From the NCBI GenBank assembly GCA_043805355.1, contig JAZDIB010000016.1, positions 1 to 38,668 of the forward strand: a stretch of DNA of 38,668 nucleotides, given 5' to 3'. Position 1 is the first letter of the stretch, and every line of letters begins with the position of its first letter. Shown one piece after another: positions 10,285 to 27,628 of the stretch. This DNA comes from Patescibacteria group bacterium (GTDB lineage Bacteria; Patescibacteriota; Patescibacteriia; 2-12-FULL-60-25). The notes under the pieces are model-generated. The model did no database searches. It worked only from the letters and a program-made list of their open reading frames with translations, and was not told the DNA's origin. The translations under genes and the position numbers were made by a program.

Positions 10285-10288
10285 AACA

Positions 10289-10936: not shown

Positions 10937-10986
10937 ACGAAAAAATATCGAGGAATGATGCGCTGCTGGATGCTAGTAAACCAGCA

Positions 10987-11736: not shown

Positions 11737-11743
11737 ATCCGCA

Positions 11744-12361
11744 TCATGCGATCTCCAGGAAATTCTTGAGCAGCGCAAGCCCGCTCTTCTGGCTTTTTTC
11801 CGGATGGAACTGCACACCCATGACGTTCCCGTGACGGACCGCGGCCGTGAACCGTTCGCCGTAGTCGCACGTCGCGATGACATCGGAATCTTCCGTCCCG
11901 TCGAAGAAAAAGCTGTGCACAAAATAGAAGATGGGCGATGCAATCCCGTCGAAAAGCGCTTCGCCAGGTTTCGGTTCGACATCGTCCCATCCGACATGCG
12001 GGACGCGGAACCGCTTCTCGTCGACGCGGAACCGACGGACGCGGCCGTGAATCCATCCGAGCCCCTCGTTCTCGCCTCCCTCCTCCCCCATATCGGCGAG
12101 GAGCTGCATCCCGAGGCAGATGCCGAGGAACGGTTTTCGCTTCTCGATTGCCTCGTGCGTGAGGACGTCAACGAGGCCGTGCGCACGGAGGTTCCGCATG
12201 CCGTCGCCGAACGCGCCGACGCCCGGAAGCACGATGTGTGTCGCGTCCTCGAAGGCCTCGGCGCGCGCCGTAATCGTCGCGTCCGCGCCCAACGAAAGGA
12301 ACGCGTTCCGCACGGACGCGACGTTCCCCATGCCGTAATCCACGATTGCGACCTTGGCCAT
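11744..12361 (-). CDS. hisH: HisH-like glutamine amidotransferase subunit paralog (WbuY type)
   Basis: ATG at 12361 (MAKVAIVDYGMGN). Nucleophile motif GICLGMQLL and VQFHPEKS. Paired with the HisF paralog across a 7-nt gap. Confidence 0.88.
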   Translation of the reverse strand: MAKVAIVDYGMGNVASVRNAFLSLGADATITARAEAFEDATHIVLPGVGAFGDGMRNLRAHGLVDVLTHEAIEKRKPFLGICLGMQLLADMGEEGGENEGLGWIHGRVRRFRVDEKRFRVPHVGWDDVEPKPGEALFDGIASPIFYFVHSFFFDGTEDSDVIATCDYGERFTAAVRHGNVMGVQFHPEKSQKSGLALLKNFLEIA

Positions 12362-12363
12362 GT

Positions 12364-13110
12364 TCAGGAAGGCTTCACCGGCTTCTGCTCGCATGACGCG
12401 TTCAGGGACGCGACCTCCGGATGCTTGTCGAGAAAGGCGAGGGCCTGCACCGTATCGATGATCGATCCCGGCCTGTAGAGCTCCACATAGATCCGTTCGA
12501 TGAGGGCGAAGTCCTCGGGGTAATCCACGGTCAGCCGATGCCCACGCGAGAGATCCGGCGGAACGGGGACGGCCTGACCGATCCTGAACGCCCCCTTCCT
12601 GTTCTCCCAGATGTACGGCGTCGCATGTTCCTTCTCATACGGCTCCGTCGCTTCAGCCGCAGCCGTCTCGAGCGGGGCGAATCCGAAAACTTCCACATCG
12701 AGGCCGCGCGGGAACGACCGATGGCCAGGGATGATGTTGCTCACGTAATCCACGGACTGCGTCTCGAACGCCCCGATGAACAGGTCGATGACGGTCGGAT
12801 CGATGAGCGGGCAATCCGACGTCACGCGGACGACCGTGTCCGCGCCCGCTTCCTTCGCCGCTCCGTGGTACCGCTCCAGGACGTCGTCGGACGAACCACG
12901 GAAACACTCGATGCCATTCTCCACGCAGAACGCCTCGACCGCATCGTCCTCCGGATTCGTGGTGGTCGCGACGATGACGCGGTCGACCTTCGTCGCCTTG
13001 CGGCACCGCACGACGACATGCCAGAGCATGGGCTTGCCAGCGAGCATCTTCAGGATCTTGCCGGGCAATCGCGTGGACCCCATCCGCGCTTGGATGATGC
13101 ATGCGGTCAT
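12364..13110 (-). CDS. SpsF-type cytidylyltransferase (CTP_transf_3 family), candidate CMP-pseudaminate synthetase
   Basis: ATG at 13110 (MTACIIQARMGSTRLPGKIL). 248 aa. Immediately downstream of pseC (2-nt gap). It is not the NeuA-like PseF type, so its role is assigned from position. Confidence 0.7.
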   Translation of the reverse strand: MTACIIQARMGSTRLPGKILKMLAGKPMLWHVVVRCRKATKVDRVIVATTTNPEDDAVEAFCVENGIECFRGSSDDVLERYHGAAKEAGADTVVRVTSDCPLIDPTVIDLFIGAFETQSVDYVSNIIPGHRSFPRGLDVEVFGFAPLETAAAEATEPYEKEHATPYIWENRKGAFRIGQAVPVPPDLSRGHRLTVDYPEDFALIERIYVELYRPGSIIDTVQALAFLDKHPEVASLNASCEQKPVKPS

Positions 13111-13112
13111 AG

Positions 13113-14240
13113 TCAAGCCAGGATGCCCCGGAGCGTCGAGATGACGGTCTGCTGGTCCTCCTCGCTCAACGTCGGGAAGATCGGAAGCGAGATCTCCGCC
13201 TCGGAAAACGCCTCGGCCTTCGGACAGGCGCCGACGGCATCTCCACGTCCCGCGTAGTACGGAAGCCGATGCACGGGGATGTAGTGGACCTGCACGCCGA
13301 TGCCCGCGTCGCGAAGTTTCGCGAACGCTTCGGCCCGGCGGCCGGCCCATGCGCCCCGGAGGCGGATCGGATAGATATGCCATCCGCAGCGGACGTCCTC
13401 GAGCTCCTGCGGGAGCTCGATTGACGGATGATCCGCGAACGCCTCGCGATACCGGGCGGCGATGGCGCGACGTGCCTCGATGAATCGCTCGAGCTTCTTC
13501 AGCTGCGAGGTCCCGAGTGCACATTGGAAGTCAGTGAGCCGCCCGTTCACGCCGAGCGCCTGCATCTCGTAATACCACGCGCCGGGCGAGGGGGTCCCCA
13601 GATGTTCCTTTGTGATGCCGTGGTTGCGGAACAGCCTCAAGCGTTCGGCATGTCCGGGGTCGTCCGTCGTGACGGCTCCGCCCTCCCCTGTCGTGATCGG
13701 CTTCACCGGATGGAAACTGAAGGCCGTCAGGTCCGCGATGGAACCGACCTTCCTCCCGTGGATCGCGGCACCGAGCGCATGGCACCCATCCTCGATGACG
13801 ATGAGCCCGTGGGCCTTCGCGATCTCCATGATGCGCAACATGTCCGCAGGATGTCCGGCATAGTCCACCGGGACGATGGCCTTCGTACGCGGCGTGATGG
13901 CAGCCTCGATCAGGTCCGGATCGATATTGCTGGTGCGCGGATCGACATCCACGAACACGGGCGTCGCCCCGAACCAGACGCCGGCATTGGACGTGGCCGC
14001 GAACGTGATGGGCGTGGTGATGAACTCGTCGCCATCCTTCAATCCCGCGACGAAGAACGACGCCATGAGAGCTACCATGCCGTTCGAGAAAGCGACGGCA
14101 TGCTTCGCGCCGACGGCATCCGCCAAGGCGCGCTCGAACGATTCGACCGCCGGCCCCTGCGTCAGCCAGTCGGATTTCAAGACACGGACGACCGCTTCCA
14201 CGTCATCGTCCTCGATAGTCTGCCGACCGTACGGGATCAT
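13113..14240 (-). CDS. pseC: UDP-4-amino-4,6-dideoxy-N-acetyl-beta-L-altrosamine transaminase-like DegT-family aminotransferase
   Basis: ATG at 14240 (MIPYGRQTIEDDDV), in an ATGA overlap with the pseB stop. FSFHPVKPITTGEGGAV carries the PLP lysine. WHIYPIRL and VHYIPVHRLPYY follow. Confidence 0.85.
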   Translation of the reverse strand: MIPYGRQTIEDDDVEAVVRVLKSDWLTQGPAVESFERALADAVGAKHAVAFSNGMVALMASFFVAGLKDGDEFITTPITFAATSNAGVWFGATPVFVDVDPRTSNIDPDLIEAAITPRTKAIVPVDYAGHPADMLRIMEIAKAHGLIVIEDGCHALGAAIHGRKVGSIADLTAFSFHPVKPITTGEGGAVTTDDPGHAERLRLFRNHGITKEHLGTPSPGAWYYEMQALGVNGRLTDFQCALGTSQLKKLERFIEARRAIAARYREAFADHPSIELPQELEDVRCGWHIYPIRLRGAWAGRRAEAFAKLRDAGIGVQVHYIPVHRLPYYAGRGDAVGACPKAEAFSEAEISLPIFPTLSEEDQQTVISTLRGILA

Positions 14241-15226
14241 AGCGAGGCGAGAAGGTCCTTCAGGCCCTGTTCGTCCAGCCATTGCGGATTCGCCTCGCTG
14301 CCGTATGACGCCCCCTCGGGGAACCCCTTACCTTCCGCATATCGCGGCGCCAGCCCCTCATCGAAGACAAACTCGGGAAGTATGACGAAGTGCCCGTCGA
14401 ATTCCTTCGCTCGGCGGGCCTCCTCCGGCGTGACGAGGACCTCATGGAGCTTCTCGCCAGGACGGATGCCGATGACCTTCATCGCGCATTCCGGCGCCAA
14501 TGTGTGCAGGAGATCCTTCACGCGCATGCTCGGGATCTTCGGGATGAAGATTTCCCCGCCATGCATCGACTCGAGCGCGCGCATCACGAGCGCGACACCT
14601 TGGTCGAGCGTGATCCAGAAGCGCGTCATCTCCTCGTGCGTCAGTGTGACGACGCCGGTCTTCCGCTGTTCCTCGACGAGTTTCAGCAGGCTCCCCCGGC
14701 TGCCGAGGACGTTTCCGTACCGGACCGCGGACAGCTTCGTGCGTCCGCTCGAATACGAATTTCCGCTCACGATGAGCTTTTCCGCGCAGAGCTTGGTCGC
14801 GCCGTACAGGTTCGCGGGGTTGGCCGCCTTGTCCGTGGAGATGAGGAGGACCTTCTGCACCCCTCGATCGATGGCTGCTTCGATGACGTTTTTGGTCCCG
14901 ATGATGTTCGTCTGGATGGCCTCGAACGGGTTATATTCGAGCAACGGTACCTGCTTGAGCGCCGCGGCATGCACGACGAAATCCACGCCTTCGAACGCCC
15001 TCGAGAGACGGGAGGCGTCCCGGACGTCGCCGAGGAAGAACCTCAAGCGCCCGAGATGCTCCGCGAACGTGGATTGCATCTGCGACTGCTTCAGCTCGTC
15101 GCGGCTGAAGACGATGATGCGGCTCGCCGTCGTCTGCTCCAGGAGCGTGCGGACGAAACGCTGGCCGAAGGAGCCGGTTCCGCCGGTCACGAGGATGCTT
15201 TTTCCGTCCAGGAATTCGTAGGTCAT
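14237..15226 (-). CDS. pseB: UDP-N-acetylglucosamine 4,6-dehydratase (inverting), FlaA1/PseB type
   Basis: 329 aa. Motifs ILVTGGTGSFG, SRDELKQ, FFLGDVRD, STDKAANPANLYGATKLCAEK, MTRFWITLD, GGEIFIPKIPSM and IGIRPGEKLHEV. Close motif-by-motif resemblance to Helicobacter FlaA1. Confidence 0.9.
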   Translation of the reverse strand: MTYEFLDGKSILVTGGTGSFGQRFVRTLLEQTTASRIIVFSRDELKQSQMQSTFAEHLGRLRFFLGDVRDASRLSRAFEGVDFVVHAAALKQVPLLEYNPFEAIQTNIIGTKNVIEAAIDRGVQKVLLISTDKAANPANLYGATKLCAEKLIVSGNSYSSGRTKLSAVRYGNVLGSRGSLLKLVEEQRKTGVVTLTHEEMTRFWITLDQGVALVMRALESMHGGEIFIPKIPSMRVKDLLHTLAPECAMKVIGIRPGEKLHEVLVTPEEARRAKEFDGHFVILPEFVFDEGLAPRYAEGKGFPEGASYGSEANPQWLDEQGLKDLLASL

Positions 15227-15284: not shown

Positions 15285-16229
15285 CTAGAGATAATCCGCG
15301 AGTTCTTCGGCGTTTTTCAGCTTCACGATTTCCGGAAACGGGAGGCGACAGCGGGCGGATTCGTCCAGGAAGACGCTGATCGCCCTCTTGCCGCAGATGA
15401 CCACAGCGGCGAGCGCCATGGTCTCGACGCCGACGACGACCGGAGCGGACGCGATATCCTCGCACAGCGTCCTGCCATCCGAAACGCGGATGTCGAGCGA
15501 CGCGCCGGATGCGGCAACGACCGCATCGAATTTCCCGCGCGGCTCGGCCGGGTGGAGGCGGATGATCAGCCGACGGTCCGGGGCATGCCGGACGACGACG
15601 CCGATGACGGCCTCGAGGACCTCGGTCTCCGTGAACGAGATCGGTTCCATGTCGCCGAGCGCGTTGACGCCCGAGTCGATCGGTTCGCTGACGAACAGAA
15701 TCGCCTGTGGATCTTCCGTAATCTTCCGCATCGCCTCCGCGAATTCCTCCTTCATCTCCACGAAGGCCTGGTTCGGGACAAGGCGGACCGTGCGGCCCGA
15801 AAAATCCCTTTGCGCGATCTCGACCGCATGCGAATCCCCGACCCATAGCTCGTCAGGCAGATTCCGTTCCCATCCTTCATGCGGATATAGGAATCGCTCC
15901 CGGTAGTTCACCCAGTGGTCCAGATAGCTGACGGTCGGGATGCCGCGTGCCTTGGCGGCGCGGATGAGGTCGGTCTCGAAGGAAGACGACCAACTCGGAT
16001 TCGCGATGACCATCTCGAGCGGTCCGCACCTCTCGAGGAGCGCCTCCGCGTCGGCATCGTCCGGATACGCCATGAACGGGACTCCTTTCCTCGTGAACGG
16101 CTTGATCGCGGCGCCGGACGCGTGGCAGATCCACGTCTTCTCGTCCCGATGCCGCTTGATGTATGCCGAAACGACGTCCGCGTCGCCCGCGCACCCGCTC
16201 GCGACCAGGACCTTCGGCGCCGGACTCAT
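15285..16229 (-). CDS. Uncharacterised two-Rossmann-domain (GT-B-like) protein; candidate PseG substitute or CMP-ulosonate transferase
   Basis: 314-aa well-formed ORF. The second half shows ILFVSEP...LIIRLHPAEP...VVVGVETMALAAVVICGKRAISVF. This is the same order of elements as the C-terminal half of the KpsS-like protein at 27629-29143. ATGA overlap with the ACP gene upstream. Confidence 0.35.
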   Translation of the reverse strand: MSPAPKVLVASGCAGDADVVSAYIKRHRDEKTWICHASGAAIKPFTRKGVPFMAYPDDADAEALLERCGPLEMVIANPSWSSSFETDLIRAAKARGIPTVSYLDHWVNYRERFLYPHEGWERNLPDELWVGDSHAVEIAQRDFSGRTVRLVPNQAFVEMKEEFAEAMRKITEDPQAILFVSEPIDSGVNALGDMEPISFTETEVLEAVIGVVVRHAPDRRLIIRLHPAEPRGKFDAVVAASGASLDIRVSDGRTLCEDIASAPVVVGVETMALAAVVICGKRAISVFLDESARCRLPFPEIVKLKNAEELADYL

Positions 16230-16483
16230 GCGAGGTGCCGCTCAATCGTCCCGATCAGCCCCCGTATCGTGCCGAAATCCTCATCCTGAAAATCCTCGTT
16301 CGTGAAACGGAAGTCGAATCGCGTTTCGGCGACCGACACGAAGGAGATGAACTTGAAGGAATCGACCCACTTCTCGACGAAATAGTTCACGTCAAGCTGC
16401 CGTTCGAGATCCTCGGAGGAGCGGCCCGTCTCCGTGACGAACCATTGTTTGACGAATTCCGCGACCTGATTCGAGGGGTCCAT
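16226..16483 (-). CDS. Acyl carrier protein (phosphopantetheine-binding, stand-alone)
   Basis: ATG at 16483 inside track ORF 16226-17095. 85 aa and acidic. The motif WVDSFKFISFV places the attachment Ser at residue 42. Confidence 0.75.
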   Translation of the reverse strand: MDPSNQVAEFVKQWFVTETGRSSEDLERQLDVNYFVEKWVDSFKFISFVSVAETRFDFRFTNEDFQDEDFGTIRGLIGTIERHLA

Positions 16484-16488
16484 ATGCG

Positions 16489-17169
16489 TCAGGAAAAAAG
16501 GAAGACGCGCGCGGGCGACCCGTCCGCCCCCCGGATCTTGAGGGGAACCGCGGCGATCGACCATCCTTCGAGCCGAGTCACGTCCTCGAGATTCGCCACG
16601 TACTCGACCATCACGACCCCGGCGCCGAGCAGGAGCTTGTGGATGGGCGAATCCTTGGGACTGCCGAGGTTCTCCCCCCTGAGAACGATGCGGCTGTCGT
16701 CCGGCGAGGGAGTGTCCATCGCGACCAGTTCGATGCCCTGGTCGATGAGATACCGTGCGGCCTCCTCCTCGAGATATGGATACCCCTGATAGAATCGGGG
16801 CGACCCCCAGTGCTTCCCCCATCCGTATTTCAGGAGGACCTTCCTGGTCGTGAGACTCCCCTTCAGCATGCCGGCGGTGACCGAGGCGTTCTCCCCCAAC
16901 CCGGTGAAATCGAGAATCGTCACGGGTCCGAACAGCCGTTCGAGCGGAAGCTCGTGGATCGCCTTCCCGCCGGGGATGAAGTGGAGCGGGGCATCGACGT
17001 GCGTGCCCGAATGCGAACCGAACGTGACTTTCCGTGTTTCCCTCCCTTCCTTGCCGTGCGTACCCATCCGCTCGATGGAGACCGTGGGATGCCATGAAGA
17101 CCCGAAGGTCAGCATGCCTTCGTGGATCTCGTGCGTGAGGTCAATCATCTCGTGGGTTTCGGGCGACAT
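16489..17169 (-). CDS. Cyclase-family metal-dependent hydrolase (kynurenine formamidase fold)
   Basis: 226 aa with the family signature HSGTHVDAPLHF, plus MDTPSPD. Confidence 0.75.
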   Translation of the reverse strand: MSPETHEMIDLTHEIHEGMLTFGSSWHPTVSIERMGTHGKEGRETRKVTFGSHSGTHVDAPLHFIPGGKAIHELPLERLFGPVTILDFTGLGENASVTAGMLKGSLTTRKVLLKYGWGKHWGSPRFYQGYPYLEEEAARYLIDQGIELVAMDTPSPDDSRIVLRGENLGSPKDSPIHKLLLGAGVVMVEYVANLEDVTRLEGWSIAAVPLKIRGADGSPARVFLFS

Positions 17170-17175
17170 ATCCGG

Positions 17176-18369
17176 TTACGGTACATCCTTCTCGTCCTCC
17201 GGGGCAATCTCCACGAACCTCCGCAGCCGCCTGACGAATTCCGCGATGTCCTGGTTCGAGACGGCAAGGCAGACGCGCAGATACCCCTCGCCCACGTCCC
17301 CGAACGCGATGCCGGGGACGGTCGACACCGATTCCTGTTCGAGGAACAGGGAGGCGAACCGCGCCGAGGAGGCCATGACCTGACGGATGTCGATGAACGC
17401 GTAGATCCCACCCTGGGGGCGGACCATCCCGATGCGCGGAATCGTCCGGCACTCCCGTTCCAGATCGTCGAGGTTGCGCTGGTACTGATCCAAGGAGAAC
17501 CGGACGAACGATTCCTCGTCGCGGAGCGCCTGCAATGCGCCGTACTGGAGAAAGGTCGTGGGGCACGTGACGGAATTCTGCTGGAGCCTGTCGATGGCGT
17601 CGATCATGTCTCCCGAGGCGAATACGAAGCCGAGCCGCCAGCCGGCCATCGCATAACTCTTCGAGAACCCATCGACGACGATCCCGTGGTCGAGCTTCGG
17701 GTCGACCTGATGCAGCGAATGGTGCTCGTGCCCCCGGAAGAGGAGACGGCCGTAAATCTCGTCCGAGATCAGGAGGATGCCGCTCCGCGCGCAGAGCCGA
17801 TGGAGGTCCTTGAGCGCCGCGAGGCCGATGGCATGCCCCGTCGGGTTGTTCGGGCTGTTGAGGATCAGGGCCTTCGTCCGTGGCGTGACCTTAGATTCCA
17901 CCGCATCGATCGCCGGGGCGAATCCGTCCGCGCCCGAGAGTCCGACGTGGACGGGGACGCCATCCGCCAGCTTAATCATCTCGTCATAACTGACCCATGC
18001 GGGAGTCATGACGATGACCTCGTCCCCGGGGTCGAGCGTCGCGAGGAGCGCATAGAGGATCGCCTGCTTCGCGCCTGGCGTGACGATAACGTTCCGATCC
18101 GGATCCAGTTCGACGCCAAACCGATCCCGAGCCATCCCGCAGAGGGCCTGCCTCAGCTCCGGCACTCCGCGGCTGTGGCTATACCCCGTCAGCCCGCGCT
18201 CGAGCGCGTCGATCGCCGCCTTCCGTATCCCCGGGGGCGTCGGGAAATTCGGCTCCCCCGTCTCCATGCGGAGGACGGGCGTCCCGCTCCGTTCCAGTTC
18301 ACGCGCGCGGTTGGCGAGCGCGACGATGGACGACGGGTTCAACTGCAGGGATCGTCTGGAAAATTTCAT
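17176..18369 (-). CDS. Class I/II PLP-dependent aminotransferase (aspartate/aromatic aminotransferase-like)
   Basis: 397 aa with NSPNNPTG and SKSYAMAGWRLG (PLP lysine). Confidence 0.9.
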   Translation of the reverse strand: MKFSRRSLQLNPSSIVALANRARELERSGTPVLRMETGEPNFPTPPGIRKAAIDALERGLTGYSHSRGVPELRQALCGMARDRFGVELDPDRNVIVTPGAKQAILYALLATLDPGDEVIVMTPAWVSYDEMIKLADGVPVHVGLSGADGFAPAIDAVESKVTPRTKALILNSPNNPTGHAIGLAALKDLHRLCARSGILLISDEIYGRLLFRGHEHHSLHQVDPKLDHGIVVDGFSKSYAMAGWRLGFVFASGDMIDAIDRLQQNSVTCPTTFLQYGALQALRDEESFVRFSLDQYQRNLDDLERECRTIPRIGMVRPQGGIYAFIDIRQVMASSARFASLFLEQESVSTVPGIAFGDVGEGYLRVCLAVSNQDIAEFVRRLRRFVEIAPEDEKDVP

Positions 18370-19139
18370 ACCTTCCGGGTCTGATGGACGACCGAGAAGA
18401 CCTCGGCGATCTCGCCATGGTCCCCGTATGCGAAAAAGACGTCGAGCCCCTTCCCGTCGATGACGACGGACTCGATGGGGGTCACGGAGATGCCGTCGCA
18501 GATCAGTCGTTCGCGCTCATGTCCCGCATCGGTCGCGACGAAGGCGAGGCAGCTGAACCCCGTCACGTCGAGCCGCGGTGCGGTCCCGGCGTCCGCGCGC
18601 GACCGCACCTCGAGCGTACAGACCCGGCCGGCGAACGGGGAATCCCACCGGAGCTCGTTCCCGAGCGTGCCTTCCATCGCCTCCACGAAACCGAAGGACC
18701 GCCAGAATCCGATGGTCCTGGCGGGATCCGACGTGACGGACACCAGTCGGTCGAAGACGAGACGCGCGCGCGGAGCTGTCCCGCGGACCTCGGCCCGGAA
18801 TTCGAGTGGGCCCGCCGAGACCGTCACGTGACCGTCTCCGGTCGTCCCGTCGTCGCGGACCGTCCACTCCGAAGGGATGTCGCCGAAAGACGGCATCAGG
18901 TTCGACTCGCCGGAAGACTCGTCATGATCGTGGATGAGCTCGATGGGGATGCTCGCGTCCGCACCCATCAGGACCAGGTCCTGGGTCGGCGCGCGCCGCG
19001 TCAGGAACGGCTCCTTGATAGCGGGATTCCCGATCCGACGTTCGACGAACCGCGTGACGTAGCCCGCGGATTCGAAAATGCCCGCGTCACGTGTGACGTC
19101 TTCCGAGACGAAGGCGACGTGGTCGATGCCGATAATCAT
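18366..19139 (-). CDS. Two-module VOC-superfamily protein (glyoxalase/dioxygenase/epimerase fold)
   Basis: 257 aa. IGIDHVAFVSEDV opens module 1. FDRLVSVTSDP...GFSCLAFVATD forms module 2. ATGA overlaps at both ends. Confidence 0.6.
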   Translation of the reverse strand: MIIGIDHVAFVSEDVTRDAGIFESAGYVTRFVERRIGNPAIKEPFLTRRAPTQDLVLMGADASIPIELIHDHDESSGESNLMPSFGDIPSEWTVRDDGTTGDGHVTVSAGPLEFRAEVRGTAPRARLVFDRLVSVTSDPARTIGFWRSFGFVEAMEGTLGNELRWDSPFAGRVCTLEVRSRADAGTAPRLDVTGFSCLAFVATDAGHERERLICDGISVTPIESVVIDGKGLDVFFAYGDHGEIAEVFSVVHQTRKV

Positions 19140-20644
19140 GTCTTGCCCGAAGCGTTACCATATAACGCTCTCAAGGCACGCATGTCAATCTTCCCGTTGA
19201 TGTTCCTCGGGACATCGTCCAGACGGAAGAACTCGTCGATGCGGCACGCGGGGCCGAGGCGTTCGACGACGCGTGCGCCGATCGTGCCGAGCGACCGCTC
19301 GGTGAACCGGCCCTCCCGCGGCACGTACATGCAGACGGTCTTCTCGCCGAGGGAGCCGTCAGGGATCCCCAAGACGACCGCGGATTCGATCTCATCGCTG
19401 TCCGCGAGGACGGACTCGATCGACCTCGGACTGATGTTGATCCCTCCGCGGATGATGATGTCCTTCTTCCTCCCCGTGATTGCCAGATGTCCATGCGCGT
19501 CGACCGTCCCGATGTCCCCGGAGTCGAAGGTCTGTCCACGATCGCGATCGCCGTCCGTCTCGTGTCGATATCCCTGGAACATCCATTCCGCCCGGATGCG
19601 GATCTCGTCGTCCGGTCCGAACGTCACCTCGACACCGTCCAACGGCGATCCGACGCCCCCTTCCGCGCATCGGTCCCCTGGGCGTTCGGTCGAAACGAAC
19701 AGCGTCTCCGACAGGCCGTAGCTCTCGTACAGCTCGATGCCGTACCTCTCCATGAACATCTTCTTCGTGCGGGGATCGAGCGGCGCGGTGCCCACGCATC
19801 CCATCACCCGCGCCTGCCGCGCGTAGTCCGCCCCCAGTGTGCCGCGATCGACCTTGAGGAGGATCGACAGGATGGCGGGGATGAACCAGAACGTGTTGAC
19901 GCGATGGCGGATCGGGTCGTCCCAGAACGACAGGGCCGAGGAGATGGAGAACCGGTCGCCGACCACAATCGAGCTCCCCGACAGCAAGGGCATCAGCCAC
20001 AAGTTCAGGATACCCGCCATATAGGTCATCGGCAGGTCGTGGTAGAAGACGTTCCCCTCATCGAACGAGAAGCGTTCCGCGAAACGACGTGCGCTGAGCG
20101 CGAGGTTCCCGAACGAGTGCCTGACGCCTTTCGGGACGCCCGTCGATCCCGACGTGAACGCGATAAGGAACGTCGATGCCGCGTCGACCGTCAGGAGCGC
20201 GTCGACGGACGCGGACGGTCCCCCGCCCGACGTGGGTCCGAGCGGGACGAGGTCGGCCGGATCGATCGTCGTCCGTGCGGCCCCCGCCCGTTCCGGCACA
20301 TCGGTGATGAGAAGCTTCACGTCGATCTGCGAAAGGATACCTTCGACCTCGTCCTTGCCTTTGAGCGGGTCGATCGGCACGACCGTATACCCGCCGAGGA
20401 GCGACGCGAGATACAGGACGAGGAGCCGGACGGAGTTCCCCATTATCAGCACGACGGTCTCTCCCCCGGCCAATCCGTGGGCACGAAGACGGGCAGCGCA
20501 GGAGACCGCCTCGTCGAGATATTCCCGATACGTCCATGAACGGCCGTCATGCGCATCTATGAGGCACGACGCATCCGCATGCGCCCGAAACGCCTCCACG
20601 AGCGCATCGACGCTAGGCTGGACGTTCCTGTTCTCCGCCGACAT
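19136..20644 (-). CDS. Adenylate-forming acyl/aminoacyl ligase (AMP-binding superfamily)
   Basis: Motifs FTSGSTGVPKGV, YGLSET, SGDIG and TGRKKDIIIRGGINISPRSIE. First ATG at 20644 (32-nt overlap with the aldolase gene). The track start at 20686 is a GTG. Confidence 0.9.
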   Translation of the reverse strand: MSAENRNVQPSVDALVEAFRAHADASCLIDAHDGRSWTYREYLDEAVSCAARLRAHGLAGGETVVLIMGNSVRLLVLYLASLLGGYTVVPIDPLKGKDEVEGILSQIDVKLLITDVPERAGAARTTIDPADLVPLGPTSGGGPSASVDALLTVDAASTFLIAFTSGSTGVPKGVRHSFGNLALSARRFAERFSFDEGNVFYHDLPMTYMAGILNLWLMPLLSGSSIVVGDRFSISSALSFWDDPIRHRVNTFWFIPAILSILLKVDRGTLGADYARQARVMGCVGTAPLDPRTKKMFMERYGIELYESYGLSETLFVSTERPGDRCAEGGVGSPLDGVEVTFGPDDEIRIRAEWMFQGYRHETDGDRDRGQTFDSGDIGTVDAHGHLAITGRKKDIIIRGGINISPRSIESVLADSDEIESAVVLGIPDGSLGEKTVCMYVPREGRFTERSLGTIGARVVERLGPACRIDEFFRLDDVPRNINGKIDMRALRALYGNASGKT

Positions 20645-21674
20645 ATCTGTCGAATCCGAATTTCCCGAAATAGATCTCCTCGCCACCCTGCATCCTCTTC
20701 GCGATGTCCTCGAGCTTCGCGACGTCGAGGTTGACCTTGTCGATCTTGCACATCTCGATGATGAGCAGGATGGGGTTGACGTTGAACTTCGCCGCGCATG
20801 CCTGGATGTGCGGCATGTAGCTCGAATGGAATTCGGCGAATCCCGACGTGATGTCGAGCGGCATCCGTCCCCTCACCCTCAACAGGGGCTGGATATAGTC
20901 CTGCCCAATCTCGAAGAGCTTCAGGATGTCGAGGTCCATGTGGTATCCCCGTTTCAGCAGGGCGGCGACGAGGATCTCGGTCACGGCGTTGCCCGCGCTC
21001 CTGCCGAGCCCCTGCAACGACGCGTCGACGAACTGGATACCCATGTCCGCGGCCGCGATGCTGTTCGAGACCGCCAGGCCAAGGTTGTCGTGCGCATGGA
21101 ATCCGACCGGGATATCCGACACCGCCCGGATCGCCTTGAAATACCTCTCGATGTCCTCGGCGAACATCCCTCCGGCCGAATCGACGATGTACACCATGTC
21201 CGCGCCATATCCTTCGGACAGCTTCACGTTCCTCGCGAATTCCTCCGGGGAGACGGCGTAGGATTTCATGTAGTTCGCGGCGACGAACATGCCGTGCCGC
21301 TTCGCCGTCCTGATGAACGGCTCCGATGCGGGAACGTCGGACACGTTCGTCCCGATCCTGACGAAGCCCATCCCGTGGCGTTTCGCGAGATCGAGGTCCT
21401 CCAGCCTGGCGATACCCGGGATGCAGAACATCCCGTATGTCGCCTTCGTAAGGACCTGTTCCGCGGCGATCATATATTCCTCGTCGGACTGGATCGCGCG
21501 TCCGAACCCGGATTCGCTTGCATGTAGGCCGACGCCGTGGCCGATTTCGATATATTCCACGCCGGCGTCCTCGAGCCGGCGGCAGATGAGGCGGACGTCC
21601 GAGGAGGTGAACGAAAAATCGATCTCGTAGCTCCCGTCCCGGATCGTCGTCTCGAGCAATGTGACGGTCTTCAT
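20613..21674 (-). CDS. HMGL-family pyruvate-dependent aldolase with a DmpG-type C-terminal domain (4-hydroxy-2-oxovalerate aldolase-like)
   Basis: ATG at 21674 (MKTVTLLETTIRDGSY). Motifs FHAHDNLGLAVSNS, GLGRSAGNA and a C-terminal GFAEFHSSYMPHIQACAAKF segment. No acetaldehyde dehydrogenase (DmpF) partner is present in the window. Confidence 0.8.
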   Translation of the reverse strand: MKTVTLLETTIRDGSYEIDFSFTSSDVRLICRRLEDAGVEYIEIGHGVGLHASESGFGRAIQSDEEYMIAAEQVLTKATYGMFCIPGIARLEDLDLAKRHGMGFVRIGTNVSDVPASEPFIRTAKRHGMFVAANYMKSYAVSPEEFARNVKLSEGYGADMVYIVDSAGGMFAEDIERYFKAIRAVSDIPVGFHAHDNLGLAVSNSIAAADMGIQFVDASLQGLGRSAGNAVTEILVAALLKRGYHMDLDILKLFEIGQDYIQPLLRVRGRMPLDITSGFAEFHSSYMPHIQACAAKFNVNPILLIIEMCKIDKVNLDVAKLEDIAKRMQGGEEIYFGKFGFDRYVGGEQERPA

Positions 21675-22132
21675 AGGGTCTTGTCGTCGATAAACGCGAC
21701 CGCGATCGCGTAGCCGTCCGCATGGGACAGGCTCAGTTTCAGAAAACAGCGACACGCGTCGTCGAGATGCAGTTCGACCCCGGGAGCGCCGTCCGCATCC
21801 GTCGTGATCGCGATCTTGGCGTATTCGGCCGGGGTGAACCGACGTCCCATCACGGAGCCAAGCGCCTTCATGACGGCCTCCTTCCCTGCATATCGGGCCG
21901 CGAGATGCTGCGCCGGATTCGCCTTCGAGAAGCAGTACGCGATCTCCTCGGACGTGAAGACGCGTTCGATCAGAGAGCTTCGTCTCGCGAGCCCCTTGAA
22001 CCGTCCGATGGATTCGATATCTACCCCGATGGAGGGGAAATCGTGCGGACCTGAAGGACGGGCTTCGCGGCGCGCAGCCTTCCGCTTGGGCGTCTTCGAT
22101 TCAGGACGCCGGCTCTCGGGAAGTCGTTTCAT
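21671..22132 (-). CDS. acpS: Holo-ACP synthase (AcpS-type 4'-phosphopantetheinyl transferase) with a basic N-terminal extension
   Basis: ATG at 22132, in an ATGA overlap with the upstream stop. IGVDIESIGRF and ARYAGKEAVMKALG are present. About 35 K/R/P-rich residues precede the core. Confidence 0.8.
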   Translation of the reverse strand: MKRLPESRRPESKTPKRKAARREARPSGPHDFPSIGVDIESIGRFKGLARRSSLIERVFTSEEIAYCFSKANPAQHLAARYAGKEAVMKALGSVMGRRFTPAEYAKIAITTDADGAPGVELHLDDACRCFLKLSLSHADGYAIAVAFIDDKTL

Positions 22133-22920
22133 TCGGTGACGTAAAAAGGTTCTTTCAGGAAAAAGCACGGATCGGTATCCAGGACCTTCATGCCCTGATC
22201 GAAACAGTCGGTGAAGTCGACCAGCTGGACCGGGGCGCCTGCGAACGTCGATGCCCGGACGAGGCCGAGCGAATCCATGTGCTTCTCGAAACGGGAAAAA
22301 TCGTACGGCTTCGATTTCCGGTTGCGCAGGAACGCGAGGAACGGGCCTTCGACGAGCTTCCCGTCACGATAGACCGGATGGAAGAACGCCTTGTGGTAGC
22401 AATGCGAGACGCCGTAGAGATGCTCGACGTAGTGGAGGAAGCTGCACGTTTCGCCCAACGTGATGCCCAGATAGAGGCACTTCGCCTTCAGGATATGCAG
22501 GCGATGGTACACGGACCCCCATCCGAACAGGGAACGCGAGACGCCGTCGCAGATGTCGTGGCTCTTCGAGCCGATGGCCGTGACCGAACCGATCGGATGG
22601 AAGGAACGGACGGCCCCGGGCATCCGTCGGATATGTTCGGTCAGGATCCCCGCCTCGGAAGGCGTCTCCTCATAGACGAACGGTTCGCCGTAGGTGCTGT
22701 ATCGCGTCGTATACGTGATGACGACGATCGTACCTTCGGGATATCCGACCGCATCGAGCAACGGGTCGAGAAAGATGCGGATGAATTCCTCCTGGTCCGA
22801 AGCGAGCCCCCCGAACCGGAAGAGGCGCGCATGGACGTAGACCGTATCGCCTTTCTGGATACCGATCCGCCCGAGGGTCTCCCTCAATTCCTGCGCGTGC
22901 GCGTTCGTCCCCATAGTCAC
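22129..22920 (-). CDS. AAC(3)-family (Antibiotic_NAT fold) N-acyltransferase
   Basis: 263 aa. GDTVYVHARLFRFGG, GTIVVITYT and RSFHPIGSVTAIG resemble aminoglycoside 3-N-acetyltransferases. The GTG at 22920 gives a GTGA overlap with the DegT stop; an alternative ATG is at 22914. Confidence 0.7.
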   Translation of the reverse strand: MTMGTNAHAQELRETLGRIGIQKGDTVYVHARLFRFGGLASDQEEFIRIFLDPLLDAVGYPEGTIVVITYTTRYSTYGEPFVYEETPSEAGILTEHIRRMPGAVRSFHPIGSVTAIGSKSHDICDGVSRSLFGWGSVYHRLHILKAKCLYLGITLGETCSFLHYVEHLYGVSHCYHKAFFHPVYRDGKLVEGPFLAFLRNRKSKPYDFSRFEKHMDSLGLVRASTFAGAPVQLVDFTDCFDQGMKVLDTDPCFFLKEPFYVTE

Positions 22921-24227
22921 GCGGCGCGGAGTTCGTCCCGATGTCCGTAGACCTTCTCGAAGGCATGGACCACGTCGTCCATATCCTCCTGCGTCGCCGG
23001 AGGCCGCATGAACTCGTTCAGGAAGAGTTCCTTCTCATGCAGCCGCTCGACGACGGGACAGATGCCCTTGGCGTAGGAGACGTTCCCGGGGTGGTACGGC
23101 GAGACGAACGGATACCCGTCCCGTCCGATGGCGATCTTCTTCTGGAACAGCGGCATGAGATACAGCGGCTTCACGTATCCGACGCTGAGCTGCGGCCCCT
23201 CGGCCTCGCGCAGCTCCGTCGGAGGGAGCTCCGCACGGACCGCGTCGATGAACGCGTCGCGCGGCACGCCGACGATGCCCTCGTCGAACAGGAACGGCTG
23301 CATGTAATAGACGTGCGTCGCGCCTTCGCGGACCTTCGGCGCGCGGATCCCGGGGAAGGCGCCAAGCTTCTCCGCGAGATACGTGCAGTTCCGGAGCCGC
23401 GCCTCGACGAGGCCGCTCAGCTTCTTCAATTGCTCGCGTCCGATCGCGGCCTGGATTTCCGTCAGCCGGAAATTCGACCCGAGCATGTTCACGAGGTCGG
23501 TCTCGCCCTTGTCCCCTACGACGGCTTCCGCATGGTTCCGGATGAGGCGGAGCCGTTCCGCCAGACGGTCGTCGTCCGTGACGACCACGCCGCCTTCGCC
23601 CGTATGGATGTGCTTGTGGTAATTCAGCGAATACACGCCCATGTCGCCGAGCGTCCCGGCGTATCGGCCCTTGTACATGGCTCCCGGTGCCTGCGCGCAG
23701 TCCTCGATGACCGTCAGGCCGTGCTCCTTCGCGATTGCATTGATCGCCTCCACGTCGTACGGCTGCCCCATGATATCCACCACGATGATGGCCTTGGTCC
23801 GTGGCGTGATGCGTGCTCGGACGGATTCCGGATCCAGGCAGAACTGCTCCGGTTCGATGTCCGCGAAGACCGGGATGGCCCCGTACCACAACGGCACGGT
23901 CGCGGAGACGGCCATGCTGTACGGCGAGACGATGACCTCGTCGCCCGGACCGATCCCCACGGCGCCGACGGCCGCCTGCAGCCCGGACGTGCAGGAGTTC
24001 ACGGCGATGGCATGCTTCACGCCGAAATGCGCGGCCCACTCCTTCTCGAACGCCTGGACTTCCGGGCCTCCATAGAAATCCTCATGCCAGCAACCGAGAT
24101 ACCGGGACAGGATACCCGAATCGATGACGCGGGAAACGGCGGCCTTCTCCTCTTCCCCGACGACCTTGTAGGCGGGGAACTTCCTCGTGCGGACCGGCTC
24201 TCCGCCATGGATGGCTAATCGCGGCAT
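22917..24227 (-). CDS. Long DegT/DnrJ/EryC1/StrS-family PLP aminotransferase (second sugar or keto-cyclitol aminotransferase)
   Basis: 436 aa. YSLNYHKHIHTGEGGVVVTDD carries the PLP lysine; NFRLTEIQAAIG follows. An N-terminal insertion RYLGCWHEDFYGGPEVQAFE is reminiscent of the glutamine:scyllo-inosose aminotransferase subgroup. Confidence 0.85.
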   Translation of the reverse strand: MPRLAIHGGEPVRTRKFPAYKVVGEEEKAAVSRVIDSGILSRYLGCWHEDFYGGPEVQAFEKEWAAHFGVKHAIAVNSCTSGLQAAVGAVGIGPGDEVIVSPYSMAVSATVPLWYGAIPVFADIEPEQFCLDPESVRARITPRTKAIIVVDIMGQPYDVEAINAIAKEHGLTVIEDCAQAPGAMYKGRYAGTLGDMGVYSLNYHKHIHTGEGGVVVTDDDRLAERLRLIRNHAEAVVGDKGETDLVNMLGSNFRLTEIQAAIGREQLKKLSGLVEARLRNCTYLAEKLGAFPGIRAPKVREGATHVYYMQPFLFDEGIVGVPRDAFIDAVRAELPPTELREAEGPQLSVGYVKPLYLMPLFQKKIAIGRDGYPFVSPYHPGNVSYAKGICPVVERLHEKELFLNEFMRPPATQEDMDDVVHAFEKVYGHRDELRAA

Positions 24228-24228
24228 A

Positions 24229-25203
24229 TCAGCGTGAGGTTACCTGTTCCAACAGCGTATCGCAAACGGCCTGTGTCTCCTCGGCGTCGGCAAGGACGCA
24301 CGCGAGTGGCTCCCCCCGATCGAGATGACGGACCGCGTTGTCGGCCATCCCAAGCATCGCCATGTCCATTCCCGACGCATGCGCCGACGGGTTCCCGAGC
24401 GTCCGGTATGAGGGATACGTCGCGTCGCTCGTCACGGCCTGCTCCTCCAAGCGGAACCCGACGTCCACGAGCCGGAAACGGCGCTTCTCGCAGACGACGT
24501 CGAGCTCGAACATGAACGCGCGACGCGCGTCGCCGATCATGAGATGGAACTCGGGGCACCGGCGGAACGAAAGGACCGCGCTCACGCACGAATCCTCCCG
24601 ATGGAAGTCCACGCGTGAGCCGAGGGCGCAGGCGGACACGACGTCCCCGAACAGGAACCGGGCAAGGTCGATGATGTGCGACCCGTTGTGCCGCAACCCC
24701 TTCACGTAGATCGCGGAGGCGGTCAGCACCTTCCCATATGCGCCGGACCGGAGGCCGTCGCGGAAATCCCGGAGACGAGGCCCGAACCGGTAGGAAAAAT
24801 TCACGAGAAGCGGGATACGCGTATAGGCCTTCGCGACCGTCCGGAGTCCGCGCATATCCGGGGCGACGGGCTTTTCGCAGATGACGAGTCTCGGACGGGC
24901 CTTCGCGACCCGGAGGAGCGTCGCGACGTGATCCGTGTCGGGCGTGCACACGCTCACGATGTCGGGCGCCGTCTCGCGGAGCATGGCGCCGAGGTCCGCA
25001 TACGCCGTGCATCCCCATCGGCGCGCCGCCTTCGCGGCCGCACGCGGATCGATGTCGCAGATGCCGACGAGGTCCGTCTTCGGGTGCCGGAAGAACGCAT
25101 GCGCATGCGTCAGGATCCCTCGGCTGCGCGGCGTATCGTACAACGCGGCGATGCTCCCAGCACCGACGATGGCTGCACGGAACCGCTTATCCTTCTTCGG
25201 CAT
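24229..25203 (-). CDS. Gfo/Idh/MocA-family NAD(P)-dependent oxidoreductase
   Basis: 324 aa with AAIVGAGSIA (Rossmann) and VICEKPVA (EKP motif). Its stop lies 1 nt upstream of the DegT start. Confidence 0.85.
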   Translation of the reverse strand: MPKKDKRFRAAIVGAGSIAALYDTPRSRGILTHAHAFFRHPKTDLVGICDIDPRAAAKAARRWGCTAYADLGAMLRETAPDIVSVCTPDTDHVATLLRVAKARPRLVICEKPVAPDMRGLRTVAKAYTRIPLLVNFSYRFGPRLRDFRDGLRSGAYGKVLTASAIYVKGLRHNGSHIIDLARFLFGDVVSACALGSRVDFHREDSCVSAVLSFRRCPEFHLMIGDARRAFMFELDVVCEKRRFRLVDVGFRLEEQAVTSDATYPSYRTLGNPSAHASGMDMAMLGMADNAVRHLDRGEPLACVLADAEETQAVCDTLLEQVTSR

Positions 25204-25945
25204 GTTTTTGTCTCACGTCCCTATTCATGTCCGCGAGGTCGGGATGTTCCGCCAACAGACGCACGACGTGCGATGCGCCGAAGTCCGGCGTTTCGCCGTG
25301 CAGTCGACCGAACACCTCTCCGATCAACGCATAGTCGTCCGGTTCGTCCAGGGTGACGCGGATGTGCGGGGCATGGCACTCGGGCTCCGCGGTCCAATTG
25401 TACGAACGGTATTCGTCCGGGTGCATGTAGATGTAATAGGAGACGTGCGTGCGGTCGATGGGATCCTGCGTCTTCCGATCCACCTCCGCGAGCACGCGCG
25501 TCGGGAAGACCTGGACCTCGAACCCGAGCGGATACGATTGCGTGAGGCAGTTCGCCGCGTAGTCCACGTCGCGTCCGAAGAATTCCTCGATGCCGCAGTC
25601 CACCACGCGGTGATCCATGAGCGGGCAGTCGCCGGTGATCTCCACGATGAGGTCGGCGGCATGGGCCTGGGCGGCACCGAGGACGCGGCCGAGCACGTCC
25701 TCCTCGCTTCCGCGAAACCATTTCGCCCCTGCACGCTCCGCGGCCTGGACGATCGCGTCATCCGCGGAATTCACGGTCGTCGCCACGACGACATCATCGA
25801 GGTATGCGCTCCGTTTGAGCCGTTCGATGAGCCGTTCCAACGCCGGTGCGCCGCCGAGGGGGAGCAGGACCTTGCCCGGCAAACGCGAAGAGGACATCCG
25901 GGCTTCGATGGTCGCGATGATCCGTTCAGGGCGGTCCGCATGCAT
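25187..25945 (-). CDS. Second SpsF-type cytidylyltransferase (CTP_transf_3 family)
   Basis: 252 aa with IIATIEARMSSSRLPGKVL and ITGDCPLMD. Paralogous to 12364-13110. 17-nt overlap with the oxidoreductase start. Confidence 0.75.
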   Translation of the reverse strand: MHADRPERIIATIEARMSSSRLPGKVLLPLGGAPALERLIERLKRSAYLDDVVVATTVNSADDAIVQAAERAGAKWFRGSEEDVLGRVLGAAQAHAADLIVEITGDCPLMDHRVVDCGIEEFFGRDVDYAANCLTQSYPLGFEVQVFPTRVLAEVDRKTQDPIDRTHVSYYIYMHPDEYRSYNWTAEPECHAPHIRVTLDEPDDYALIGEVFGRLHGETPDFGASHVVRLLAEHPDLADMNRDVRQKHAEEG

Positions 25946-27518: not shown

Positions 27519-27628
27519 ATCTAGGCCGGATGCGCCATGAATCCTTGCAACATGGGCCCCCTTTTAGTAACGTTGCCCCGTCACATCATAGGGCCAAACC
27601 CGACGGAACGGAAGGGTTCGCCCGCGCT
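27519..27628. promoter_or_regulatory. Divergent promoter region between the flippase block and the plus-strand block
   Basis: 110-nt gap between divergent start codons (27518 minus, 27629 plus). It contains a palindromic TTGCAA (27545-27550) followed 17 nt later by a weak TAACGT (27568-27573). The assignment is weak. Confidence 0.3.

Follow-up and report, generated by a model that had tools for sequence, protein, structure and literature searches.

Unusual N-acyl groups of amino sugars are already known to be constructed on acyl carrier proteins (ACPs). In Vibrio cholerae O1, RfbK, RfbL, RfbM, RfbN and RfbO provide the 3-deoxy-L-glycero-tetronyl N-acyl group of perosamine by an ACP-dependent route, and the 4-amino-2-hydroxybutyrate (AHBA) side chain of butirosin involves the BtrI ACP together with BtrJ, BtrK, BtrO/V, BtrH and BtrG. 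FkbH proteins are known loaders that form glyceryl-ACP. Campylobacter jejuni NCTC 11168 cannot form di-O-methylglyceroyl-pseudaminic acid without Cj1295, which carries an aminopeptidase annotation; an N-acetyltransferase-like gene, Cj1296/7, is adjacent to it, and cj1302 carries an FkbH domain. Sets of ACP, ligase, LuxC and LuxE genes are annotated in the pseudaminic-acid islands of Aeromonas and Enterobacteriaceae. The N-acyl groups of pseudaminic and legionaminic acids (glyceroyl, hydroxybutyryl, methoxy-trihydroxyhexanoyl, amino-acyl) shape antigenicity, phage binding and flagellar assembly, and the enzymes that install the non-acetyl ones are largely unknown. Work on Tannerella forsythia notes how little is known of the enzymes that modify nonulosonates, describes the glyceroyl and acetimidoyl substitutions as "a major challenge" and states that the genes responsible are yet to be identified. 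Here we analyse an eight-gene, ACP-dependent acyl-building cassette in a pseudaminic-acid locus of a Patescibacteria group bacterium, contig JAZDIB010000016.1 of assembly GCA_043805355.1, whose 38,668 nucleotides are referred to below as the window.

The locus can be assigned to pseudaminic acid, as the PseB, PseC and PseI equivalogs all score above their NCBIfam cut-offs (see the table). A preliminary description of the window, made from the letters without database searches, had listed eight consecutive minus-strand genes at positions 16226-22920, and all eight are present in the open reading frame (ORF) listing with the identities proposed there, six of them confirmed by Pfam, the ACP by a sequence profile and the vicinal oxygen chelate (VOC) protein by structure prediction. 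The G+C content at third codon positions (0.73-0.84) is of coding type for each of them. The ATGA overlaps at 16226, 18366, 19136, 21671 and 22129 and the GTGA overlap at 22917 were read directly in the sequence exactly as described earlier; from these overlaps the module genes are tightly translationally coupled, and the module forms part of a single long minus-strand operon. It does not directly adjoin pseB, as had been supposed: a gene for a 314-aa protein of the GT-B fold (15285-16229) separates the ACP gene from pseB. The Pfam families expected earlier were partly recovered: Cyclase, Aminotran_1_2, AMP-binding, HMGL-like, ACPS and Antibiotic_NAT gave matches, whereas PP-binding and DmpG_comm stayed below threshold and the VOC protein matched nothing. 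A Pfam scan of the approximately 38 largest ORFs of the window, the set to which the negative statements on its gene content refer below, revealed no ketosynthase, no nonribosomal peptide synthetase condensation domain and no fatty acid synthase gene, and the interpretation of the module as a polyketide synthase, nonribosomal peptide synthetase or fatty acid synthase fragment is rejected, as it had been in the preliminary description.

We propose tentatively, stopping short of calling it probable, that the cassette synthesises a short polar acyl group and attaches it through an amide bond to an intermediate of the pseudaminic-acid pathway. The general logic, in which an acyl group is built on an ACP and then transferred to a sugar amine, is well supported by the comparison of gene neighbourhoods. 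Literature searches retrieved no description of a builder consisting of an aldolase, an aminotransferase, an adenylate-forming (ANL) ligase, a VOC protein and a cyclase, of a dedicated AcpS-type phosphopantetheinyl transferase in such a locus, or of an AAC(3)-fold protein acting as an acyl-ACP transferase. The earlier impression that this combination is unfamiliar from described nonulosonate pathways is borne out to that extent, but related ACP cassettes do occur in the pseudaminic-acid loci of C. jejuni, Aeromonas and Enterobacteriaceae.

The closest described counterpart is the C. jejuni cassette Cj1295-Cj1302, within which the ACP and methyltransferase genes presumably also lie. Like the window, it combines an AAC(3)-fold transferase (the AAC(3)-like Cj1296/7) with a stand-alone ACP in a pseudaminic-acid locus and is linked to a non-acetyl N-acyl group; among the loci compared here (numbered with the prefix L), L015 and L012 contain its counterparts. 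Unlike the window, it has an FkbH loader and a putative deacylase of the DUF4910 family (the M28-like Cj1295), and neither a VOC protein nor a cyclase. The AAC(3) proteins of such C. jejuni-type cassettes are 35-41% identical to the window protein. In particular, the arrangement of FkbH, ACP, methyltransferase, AAC(3) and DUF4910 genes in L015 mirrors that of Cj1295-Cj1302, and this likeness connects the transfer core with an N-acyl modification of defined chemical structure.

Other ACP-dependent systems are more distant. In the V. cholerae O1 Rfb system, an O-antigen locus likewise encodes a stand-alone ACP and an AMP-ligase, and a short hydroxy-acyl group ends up in amide linkage to an amino sugar, but the system relies on LuxC/E-like reductases, an iron-containing alcohol dehydrogenase and a hexapeptide acetyltransferase and has no aldolase, VOC protein, cyclase, dedicated phosphopantetheinyl transferase or AAC(3) protein. 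Butirosin is comparable in logic: a gamma-substituted alpha-hydroxy- or alpha-amino-acyl group is built on a dedicated ACP and then moved to a sugar-like amine, whereas the loader is of the ATP-grasp type, the transferase belongs to another family and the acceptor is an aminoglycoside. In DltA and DltC, too, a ligase of the ANL type works with its own small carrier protein, and the window ACP shows a weak match to DltC (E-value 6.5e-4); however, the DltC score is 19.7 against a cut-off of 68, DltB and DltD are missing, and the Dlt target is teichoic acid, acylated through an ester bond unlike the proposed sugar amide.

The block of aldolase, ligase, VOC, cyclase and ACP genes recurs in seven other loci, and an eighth, L016, has it without the aldolase. 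Its hosts include Ca. Uhrbacteria (L001), a gammaproteobacterial metagenome-assembled genome (L013), Ca. Omnitrophota (L016) and the sources of the metagenome loci L018-L021. Synteny between the window and the Ca. Uhrbacteria locus (L001/L002/L007) extends over about 20 kb, and this locus has all module genes except an adjacent class I aminotransferase; L013 has all eight in a rearranged order. Word-indexed homologue searches with the VOC protein or its family alignment returned only 2-3 proteins; an exhaustive search of representative sequences was used instead and gave 452 representative clusters at E<=1e-3, whose named members, from Ca. Uhrbacteria, Ca. Omnitrophota and Ca. Micrarchaeota, are all annotated as hypothetical. 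All five further VOC-gene contexts sampled from this family carry the builder block. Their gene contents are: ligase, VOC, methyltransferase, ACP, radical SAM, AAC(3), DUF4910, 2-hydroxyacid dehydrogenase and cyclase, with an adjoining PseB-like gene, in L016; AcpS, aldolase, ligase, VOC, methyltransferase, cyclase, ACP, AAC(3) and DUF4910 in L018; aldolase, ligase, VOC, aminotransferase and cyclase in L019; AcpS, aldolase, VOC, cyclase, ligase and aminotransferase in L020; and a DegT-family aminotransferase (DegT2, see below), cytidylyltransferase, Gfo/Idh/MocA oxidoreductase (Gfo), homologue of the 314-aa protein, aminotransferase, aldolase, ligase-cyclase fusion, VOC, ACP and a GNAT-family protein in L021. 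The GNAT gene of L021 occupies the place of the AAC(3) gene beside the ACP gene, and an MBOAT gene lies downstream. Wherever the context is informative the builder block sits in glycan loci; a distribution mainly outside them, which the preliminary description had named as refuting its proposal, was not seen in this sample.

The enzyme expected to act at C2 of the acyl group varies. A class I aminotransferase lies within the module in the window, L013, L019, L020 and L021, whereas no counterpart was seen in L016 and L018, which have a methyltransferase instead, accompanied in L016 by a 2-hydroxyacid dehydrogenase. Such an exchange of amino-, hydroxy- and methoxy-forming enzymes is to be expected if the product of the aldolase is a 4-hydroxy-2-oxo acid. 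The whole builder may also be replaced: FkbH and a methyltransferase are found in L005 and L015, and L003, L006, L010 and L011 combine MaoC and a short-chain dehydrogenase/reductase (SDR) with either FkbH or a short FkbH-like protein of the HAD type. Three layers emerge from these gene contents, namely a transfer core of AAC(3), ACP and AcpS, interchangeable acyl builders, and a variable C2 tailoring enzyme.

The transfer core is centred on the 263-aa AAC(3)-fold protein, a member of the Antibiotic_NAT family (PF02522, E-value 9.9e-30). The AAC_3 resistance equivalog NF033082 scores only 77 bits against a cut-off of 270; an aminoglycoside-resistance gene is rejected, as the protein falls far below this equivalog and agrees with the fold family alone. 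Its family profile matches AAC(3) structures and FrbF, an enzyme of the same fold whose substrate is a CMP-linked amine. In the LHxxE motif, His and Glu, the catalytic pair of AAC(3)-VIa, are retained in the family (H163 is invariant, and E166 is present in at least 90% of the sequences). Homologues are rare: the protein shares 41-65% identity with 29 clusters, those with names coming from Ca. Uhrbacteria and Ca. Kaiserbacteria, and a search of species-representative genome contigs with the alignment gave six loci, mostly from the candidate phyla radiation (CPR), too few for a census. Whatever the loader, an ACP gene lies near the AAC(3) homologue in 11 of the 12 other loci that have one (none was detected in L012), joined in nine of them by an AcpS gene, and most of the loci carry PseB and/or NeuB; neither PseB nor NeuB was seen in the examined DNA of L015 and L018. 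This co-occurrence singles out the AAC(3)-fold protein as the leading candidate for the final acyl-ACP:sugar-amine transferase, the role it had been given from the window alone, and the association of AAC(3) and ACP, often with AcpS, in NeuB/PseB loci with interchangeable builders lends comparative support to the earlier view that this pseudaminic-acid locus contains a module in which acyl groups are built on, and transferred from, a carrier protein.

The 85-aa carrier protein itself is too divergent for a single-sequence assignment: it scores 16.7 bits against PP-binding (PF00550), below the gathering threshold of 20.8, and other single-sequence matches, to the AmcB ACP and DltC, are also weak. 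A profile of the window protein and four positional equivalents from related loci matches solved ACP structures (2lml at 9e-8 and dozens more), and W39, D41 and S42 are invariant across the five aligned proteins. By these matches the protein is assigned as an ACP with Ser42 of the DSF motif as the predicted attachment site, the residue picked out in the preliminary description. The phosphopantetheinyl transferase matches ACPS (PF01648, 2.5e-18, 66.6 bits against a threshold of 25) and TIGR00516 (62.5 against 59.8), and its gene is bordered by ATGA overlaps on both sides. It has a Lys/Arg-rich N-terminal extension of 32 residues that is not found in its 110-145-aa homologues from related loci.

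The aldolase has the HMGL-like domain (8.9e-37), passes the cut-off of NF006049 (296 against 229) and matches the solved 4-hydroxy-2-oxovalerate aldolases 8ih7 and 1nvm at 1e-54 to 1e-55. Like DmpG and BphI, it has the DRE-TIM fold and retains the HxH motif. It differs from them in other respects: TIGR03217 scores 271.8 against 286 and DmpG_comm 18.6 against 27, no DmpF partner was found among the scanned ORFs of the window, and all five module aldolases share the sequence TLRDGSY, with Tyr at the position of the His in 8ih7 (RDGMH) that is presumably the proposed catalytic base of DmpG. By these measures the window aldolase is no DmpG equivalog, and its sequence places it in a distinct TLRDGSY clade without DmpF.

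The ligase contains both ANL domains (AMP-binding PF00501, 1.4e-53; AMP-binding_C PF13193, 2e-9), and with either of its two possible starts, 20686 or 20644, its gene overlaps the aldolase gene, as in related loci. Among solved structures the ligase comes nearest to those of malonyl-CoA and oxalyl-CoA synthetases (E-values of about 1e-36 to 1e-38), followed by adenylation domains of nonribosomal peptide synthetases (gramicidin synthetase, 1e-26), and the amino-acid adenylation model TIGR01733 scores 130 against a cut-off of 317. A small polar acid is a plausible substrate, and an alpha-amino acid is not specifically indicated. The pathway suggested earlier, in which a gamma-hydroxy-alpha-amino acid made by aldolase and aminotransferase is loaded, is partly supported: the exchange of C2 tailoring enzymes in L016 and L018 fits a 2-oxo acid precursor, but the ligase is nearer to malonyl- and oxalyl-CoA synthetases than to amino-acid adenylation domains. 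The aminotransferase belongs to PF00155 (2.2e-67), and its top NCBIfam matches, all below their cut-offs, are aspartate aminotransferases.

For the 257-aa VOC protein, which has no Pfam or NCBIfam match, the assignment comes from an AlphaFold2 (AF2) model (pLDDT 93.5, pTM 0.91), for which Foldseek retrieved GLOD4 (2.6e-10), maize glyoxalase I (GlxI) and two-domain proteins of the glyoxalase type; PF00903 is matched by 30 of its 40 homologues. The protein is predicted to be a member of the VOC superfamily with paired modules. Five residues, D6, H7, K42, E67 and E246, are invariant in these homologues and spread over both domains, while the expected fourth metal-ligand position, placed like the others by motif and not in the three-dimensional model, is Asn or Ser. 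We read this as a single site of the glyoxalase I or methylmalonyl-CoA epimerase (MMCE) type that would span the two domains. The substrates of glyoxalase I and MMCE are thioesters or hemithioacetals, so action on acyl-S-ACP, in the simplest case C2 epimerisation, is our best guess. The VOC gene is adjacent to or overlaps the ligase gene in seven of nine loci. The cyclase-fold protein (PF04199, 1.2e-30) has an intact HxGTHxDxPxH motif and aligns with solved metal-dependent hydrolases and formamidases; since the arylformamidase equivalog TIGR03035 scores 70.5 against 223, it is assigned to the broader PF04199 family and is no kynurenine formamidase orthologue by this measure. In L021 (6707-8980) the ligase and cyclase domains are fused in one 757-aa ORF, which suggests that the cyclase handles the substrate or product of the ligase, and the readiness of gamma-hydroxy acids and their activated forms to lactonise suggests lactone opening or editing as its role.

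In the order of steps that we propose, the aldolase would condense pyruvate with a small aldehyde to a 4-hydroxy-2-oxo acid, the synthetic direction being presumed, and the aminotransferase would replace the C2 keto group by an amino group, so that a gamma-hydroxy-alpha-amino acid results; its place would be taken in sister cassettes by a methyltransferase and/or a 2-hydroxyacid dehydrogenase. AcpS would convert the apo-ACP to the holo form, and the ligase would adenylate the acid and load it onto the phosphopantetheine of Ser42. The cyclase-fold hydrolase would partner the ligase directly, perhaps by opening or editing the lactone of the gamma-hydroxy acid, and the thioester would be the substrate of the VOC enzyme, for which C2 epimerisation is the likeliest activity. 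Finally, a sugar amine would receive the acyl group from the ACP through the AAC(3)-fold enzyme; the preferred acceptor is the 4-amino group of UDP-4-amino-4,6-dideoxy-beta-L-AltNAc, the product of PseB and PseC. On this view the AAC(3)-fold enzyme would stand in for the missing PseH at the same pathway step, with the Antibiotic_NAT fold in place of the GNAT fold and with acyl-ACP as the proposed donor instead of acetyl-CoA, and a 7-N-acyl pseudaminic acid would result, in which WbuX, HisH and HisF would turn the 5-N-acetyl group into acetamidino. The same substitution pattern is seen in T. forsythia Pse5Am7Gra. The flagellin sugar of Treponema denticola is described as a 2-methoxy-4,5,6-trihydroxyhexanoyl-nonulosonic acid; this acyl skeleton corresponds to an aldol product of pyruvate and glyceraldehyde, and acyl groups of the kind proposed thus exist on nonulosonic acids.

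The choice of the PseC product as acceptor is connected with a gap in the pathway. No PseH-type GNAT protein was found in the window, nor any GNAT protein in L001, L005, L013 and L014, which have PseB (and NeuB/PseI where the contig extends). PseG also has no recognisable match in the window. The 314-aa protein next to pseB has no Pfam or NCBIfam family and no PDB match in sequence-profile searches; its AF2 model (pLDDT 84) has the GT-B fold, with Foldseek matches to UDP-sugar 2-epimerases including NeuC, to polysialyltransferase and to MurG, and most loci with the AAC(3) gene also have the gene for this protein. We regard it as a candidate substitute for PseG, probably a nucleotide-sugar hydrolase of an unrecognised PseG- or NeuC-like family. 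We give the PseC product a slight edge over a new amine as the acceptor, because the canonical pathway would otherwise be left without an essential step.

Several points weigh against this scheme. The exchange of His for Tyr means that the aldolase reaction may differ from that of DmpG. The likeness of the ligase to malonyl- and oxalyl-CoA synthetases, greater than that to amino-acid adenylation domains, means that the loaded acid may be a keto or hydroxy acid, with the aminotransferase acting elsewhere. The roles of the cyclase and VOC proteins are guesses constrained by fold, conserved residues, adjacency and one fusion; the use of acyl-ACP by the AAC(3)-fold enzyme is argued from synteny only, and the scheme as a whole is deduced from sequence and predicted structure. 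In two loci, L003 and L006, a GNAT gene is present besides the AAC(3) gene. Finally, three genes directly upstream of the module, for a cytidylyltransferase (CTP2), Gfo and DegT2, accompany the cassette in nine loci, among them L021, in which PseB was not seen, and this favours a different acceptor.

All three, CTP2, Gfo and DegT2, lie alongside the cassette in the window, L001, L005, L011, L013 (DegT2 truncated), L014 and L021, and Gfo and DegT2 also in L003 and L006; the trio is absent from the loci with a DUF4910/M28-like putative deacylase, L012, L015, L016 and L018. In most loci no other gene is as well conserved as DegT2, which is 62-76% identical between them. A second explanation, which we consider somewhat unlikely though it deserves serious weight, retains the ACP chemistry and changes the acceptor: CTP2 would make a CMP-nonulosonate, Gfo would oxidise a hydroxyl group (at C8 by analogy with ElaA), DegT2 would transaminate the ketone, and the AAC(3)-fold enzyme would acylate the new amine to give a triamino N-acyl nonulosonic acid. 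The distribution of the trio fits this explanation, as do its position directly upstream, the GTGA overlap of DegT2 with the AAC(3) gene and the pyridoxal phosphate lysine retained in the DegT2 translation; moreover, the GNAT proteins of L003 and L006 could be PseH acting alongside the AAC(3)-fold enzyme. A precedent exists in Acinetobacter baumannii, where ElaB (a CTP-transferase) and ElaA (Gfo/Idh/MocA) act on CMP-Leg5,7Ac2 to give CMP-8-keto-legionaminic acid, oxidised at C8, before reduction by an SDR, ElaC. The order of a CTP-transferase followed by Gfo/Idh/MocA in a nonulosonate locus is common to both, whereas the third gene is a DegT aminotransferase here; such a replacement would give an 8-amino sugar, and by this analogy the trio raises the possibility of a triamino nonulosonic acid. 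Sequence similarity to ElaA and ElaB could nevertheless not be shown, the best matches being inositol dehydrogenase and the structural-genomics cytidylyltransferase 6oew, and no report of a triamino nonulosonic acid was found in literature searches. In addition, the window and four other loci would be left without PseH activity, so that the canonical pathway should stall, and L010 has an AAC(3) cassette with no Gfo or DegT2 gene within 10 kb.

A bolder generalisation, which we regard as rather doubtful, is that this AAC(3) clade is a so far unrecognised class of acyl-ACP:nonulosonate N-acyltransferases in plug-and-play cassettes with a private ACP and AcpS and interchangeable builders, which would account for a large part of the variety of N-acyl groups on pseudaminic and legionaminic acids; in the window the acceptor would be the extra amine of a CMP-sugar made by the ElaB/ElaA-like pair and the aminotransferase, and the product a triamino nonulosonic acid with a gamma-hydroxy-alpha-amino acyl chain.

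A quite different assignment of the transferase appears improbable. To our knowledge, all characterised AAC(3)-fold members, FrbF included, use acetyl-CoA, and the window enzyme might accordingly be an ordinary N-acetyltransferase that replaces PseH non-homologously, while the ACP module would make an O-acyl or lipid-type glycan substituent moved by another enzyme. Besides the known donor of the fold, this would account for L021, with its builder block, GNAT and MBOAT but no AAC(3) gene, and for L020, where the builder block has no AAC(3) gene within the 17.5 kb examined. It would not account for the ACP gene that lies only a few genes away from members of this AAC(3) clade in 11 of the 12 other loci, whatever the loader; no other acyltransferase was seen among the scanned ORFs of the window operon, and the C. 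jejuni counterpart lies in a cassette linked to the N-linked di-O-methylglyceroyl group. The last alternative, that the VOC, aldolase and hydrolase genes are chance-landed remnants of an aromatic meta-cleavage pathway, is hardly credible and is effectively refuted by synteny: meta-cleavage operons do combine the families of extradiol dioxygenases (VOC), DmpG aldolases and hydrolases, and the aldolase passes NF006049, but DmpF and a hydratase are missing, the genes are translationally coupled to those of the ACP, phosphopantetheinyl transferase and ligase, the block is conserved in glycan loci of CPR, DPANN and Omnitrophota, the conserved VOC residues lie in both domains as in glyoxalase/MMCE-type enzymes, and the proposed catalytic His of the aldolase is replaced.

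The proposed transfer to a pseudaminic-acid intermediate offers a testable scheme for installing non-acetyl N-acyl groups, with a private ACP and phosphopantetheinyl transferase, an exchangeable builder and an AAC(3)-fold transferase. If it is true, the AAC(3) fold, associated with antibiotic resistance, gains a physiological role and a new type of donor. The spread of the cassette over uncultivated CPR, DPANN and Omnitrophota suggests that organisms with tiny genomes carry out elaborate chemistry on their surface sugars.

Table. Genes of the acyl-building module and its surroundings in the window
Feature	Positions	Strand	Basis of assignment
Wzx-type flippase	26010-27518	-	Pfam context scan
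CTP_transf_3 cytidylyltransferase (CTP2)	25187-25945	-	Pfam
Gfo/Idh/MocA oxidoreductase (Gfo)	24229-25203	-	Pfam
Second DegT aminotransferase (DegT2)	22917-24227	-	Pfam
AAC(3)-fold N-acyltransferase, 263 aa	22129-22920	-	Antibiotic_NAT PF02522; alternative start ATG 22914
AcpS-type 4'-phosphopantetheinyl transferase, 153 aa	21671-22132	-	PF01648, TIGR00516
DmpG-like class II pyruvate aldolase, 353 aa	20613-21674	-	HMGL-like, NF006049
ANL (adenylate-forming) ligase, 502-516 aa	19136-20686	-	AMP-binding and AMP-binding_C; start 20644 or 20686
Two-domain VOC protein (glyoxalase/MMCE-type), 257 aa	18366-19139	-	AF2 and Foldseek (predicted)
Class I (aspartate-aminotransferase-type) pyridoxal phosphate aminotransferase, 397 aa	17176-18369	-	PF00155
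Cyclase/kynurenine-formamidase-fold metal-dependent hydrolase, 226 aa	16489-17169	-	PF04199
Stand-alone ACP, 85 aa, Ser42 in W-x-DSF	16226-16483	-	Profile against solved ACPs
GT-B-fold protein, 314 aa, without Pfam family	15285-16229	-	AF2 and Foldseek (predicted)
PseB	14237-15226	-	TIGR03589, 445.8 against cut-off 407.75
PseC	13113-14282	-	TIGR03588, 472.7 against cut-off 423.5
Second cytidylyltransferase	~12364-13107	-	Pfam
HisH	11744-12394	-	Pfam
HisF/WbuZ	10987-11745	-	Pfam
Methyltransferase (S-adenosylmethionine-dependent)	10289-10936	-	Pfam
WbuX amidotransferase	9133-10284	-	Above NCBIfam cut-off
PseI	8061-9122	-	TIGR03586, 451.7 against cut-off 340.25

Downstream of the module, the stop codon of PseB overlaps an in-frame ATG of PseC (ATGA at 14237); the start of PseC is probably this codon, Met15 of the listed ORF, so that these two genes are translationally coupled as well. 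The WbuX, HisF/WbuZ and HisH genes and the methyltransferase gene between them (9133-12394) suggest acetamidino formation on the same sugar, possibly with N-methylation.

On the other side, a divergent plus-strand block (27509-33108) encodes a Capsule_synth protein, a short UDP-glucose-dehydrogenase-like ORF of 265 aa, two epimerases/dehydratases and a C-methyltransferase, and is syntenic with the Ca. Uhrbacteria locus at 54-65% identity. The G+C content is 63% in the window and 57% in the Ca. Uhrbacteria locus; together with the synteny of this block, the difference indicates that an entire glycan island of about 25 kb is common to distant genomes. Within the syntenic Ca. Uhrbacteria locus, L001 also contains an ATP-citrate-lyase-like triple (17857-20346) of ATP-grasp_2/Citrate_bind, CoA_binding/Succ_CoA_lig and a short Citrate_synt protein, which may supply a substrate for the aldolase module. 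In L008/L013 (5174-5776), DegT2 is represented by its N-terminal 201 residues only (75% identity), either a truncated gene or an assembly artefact.

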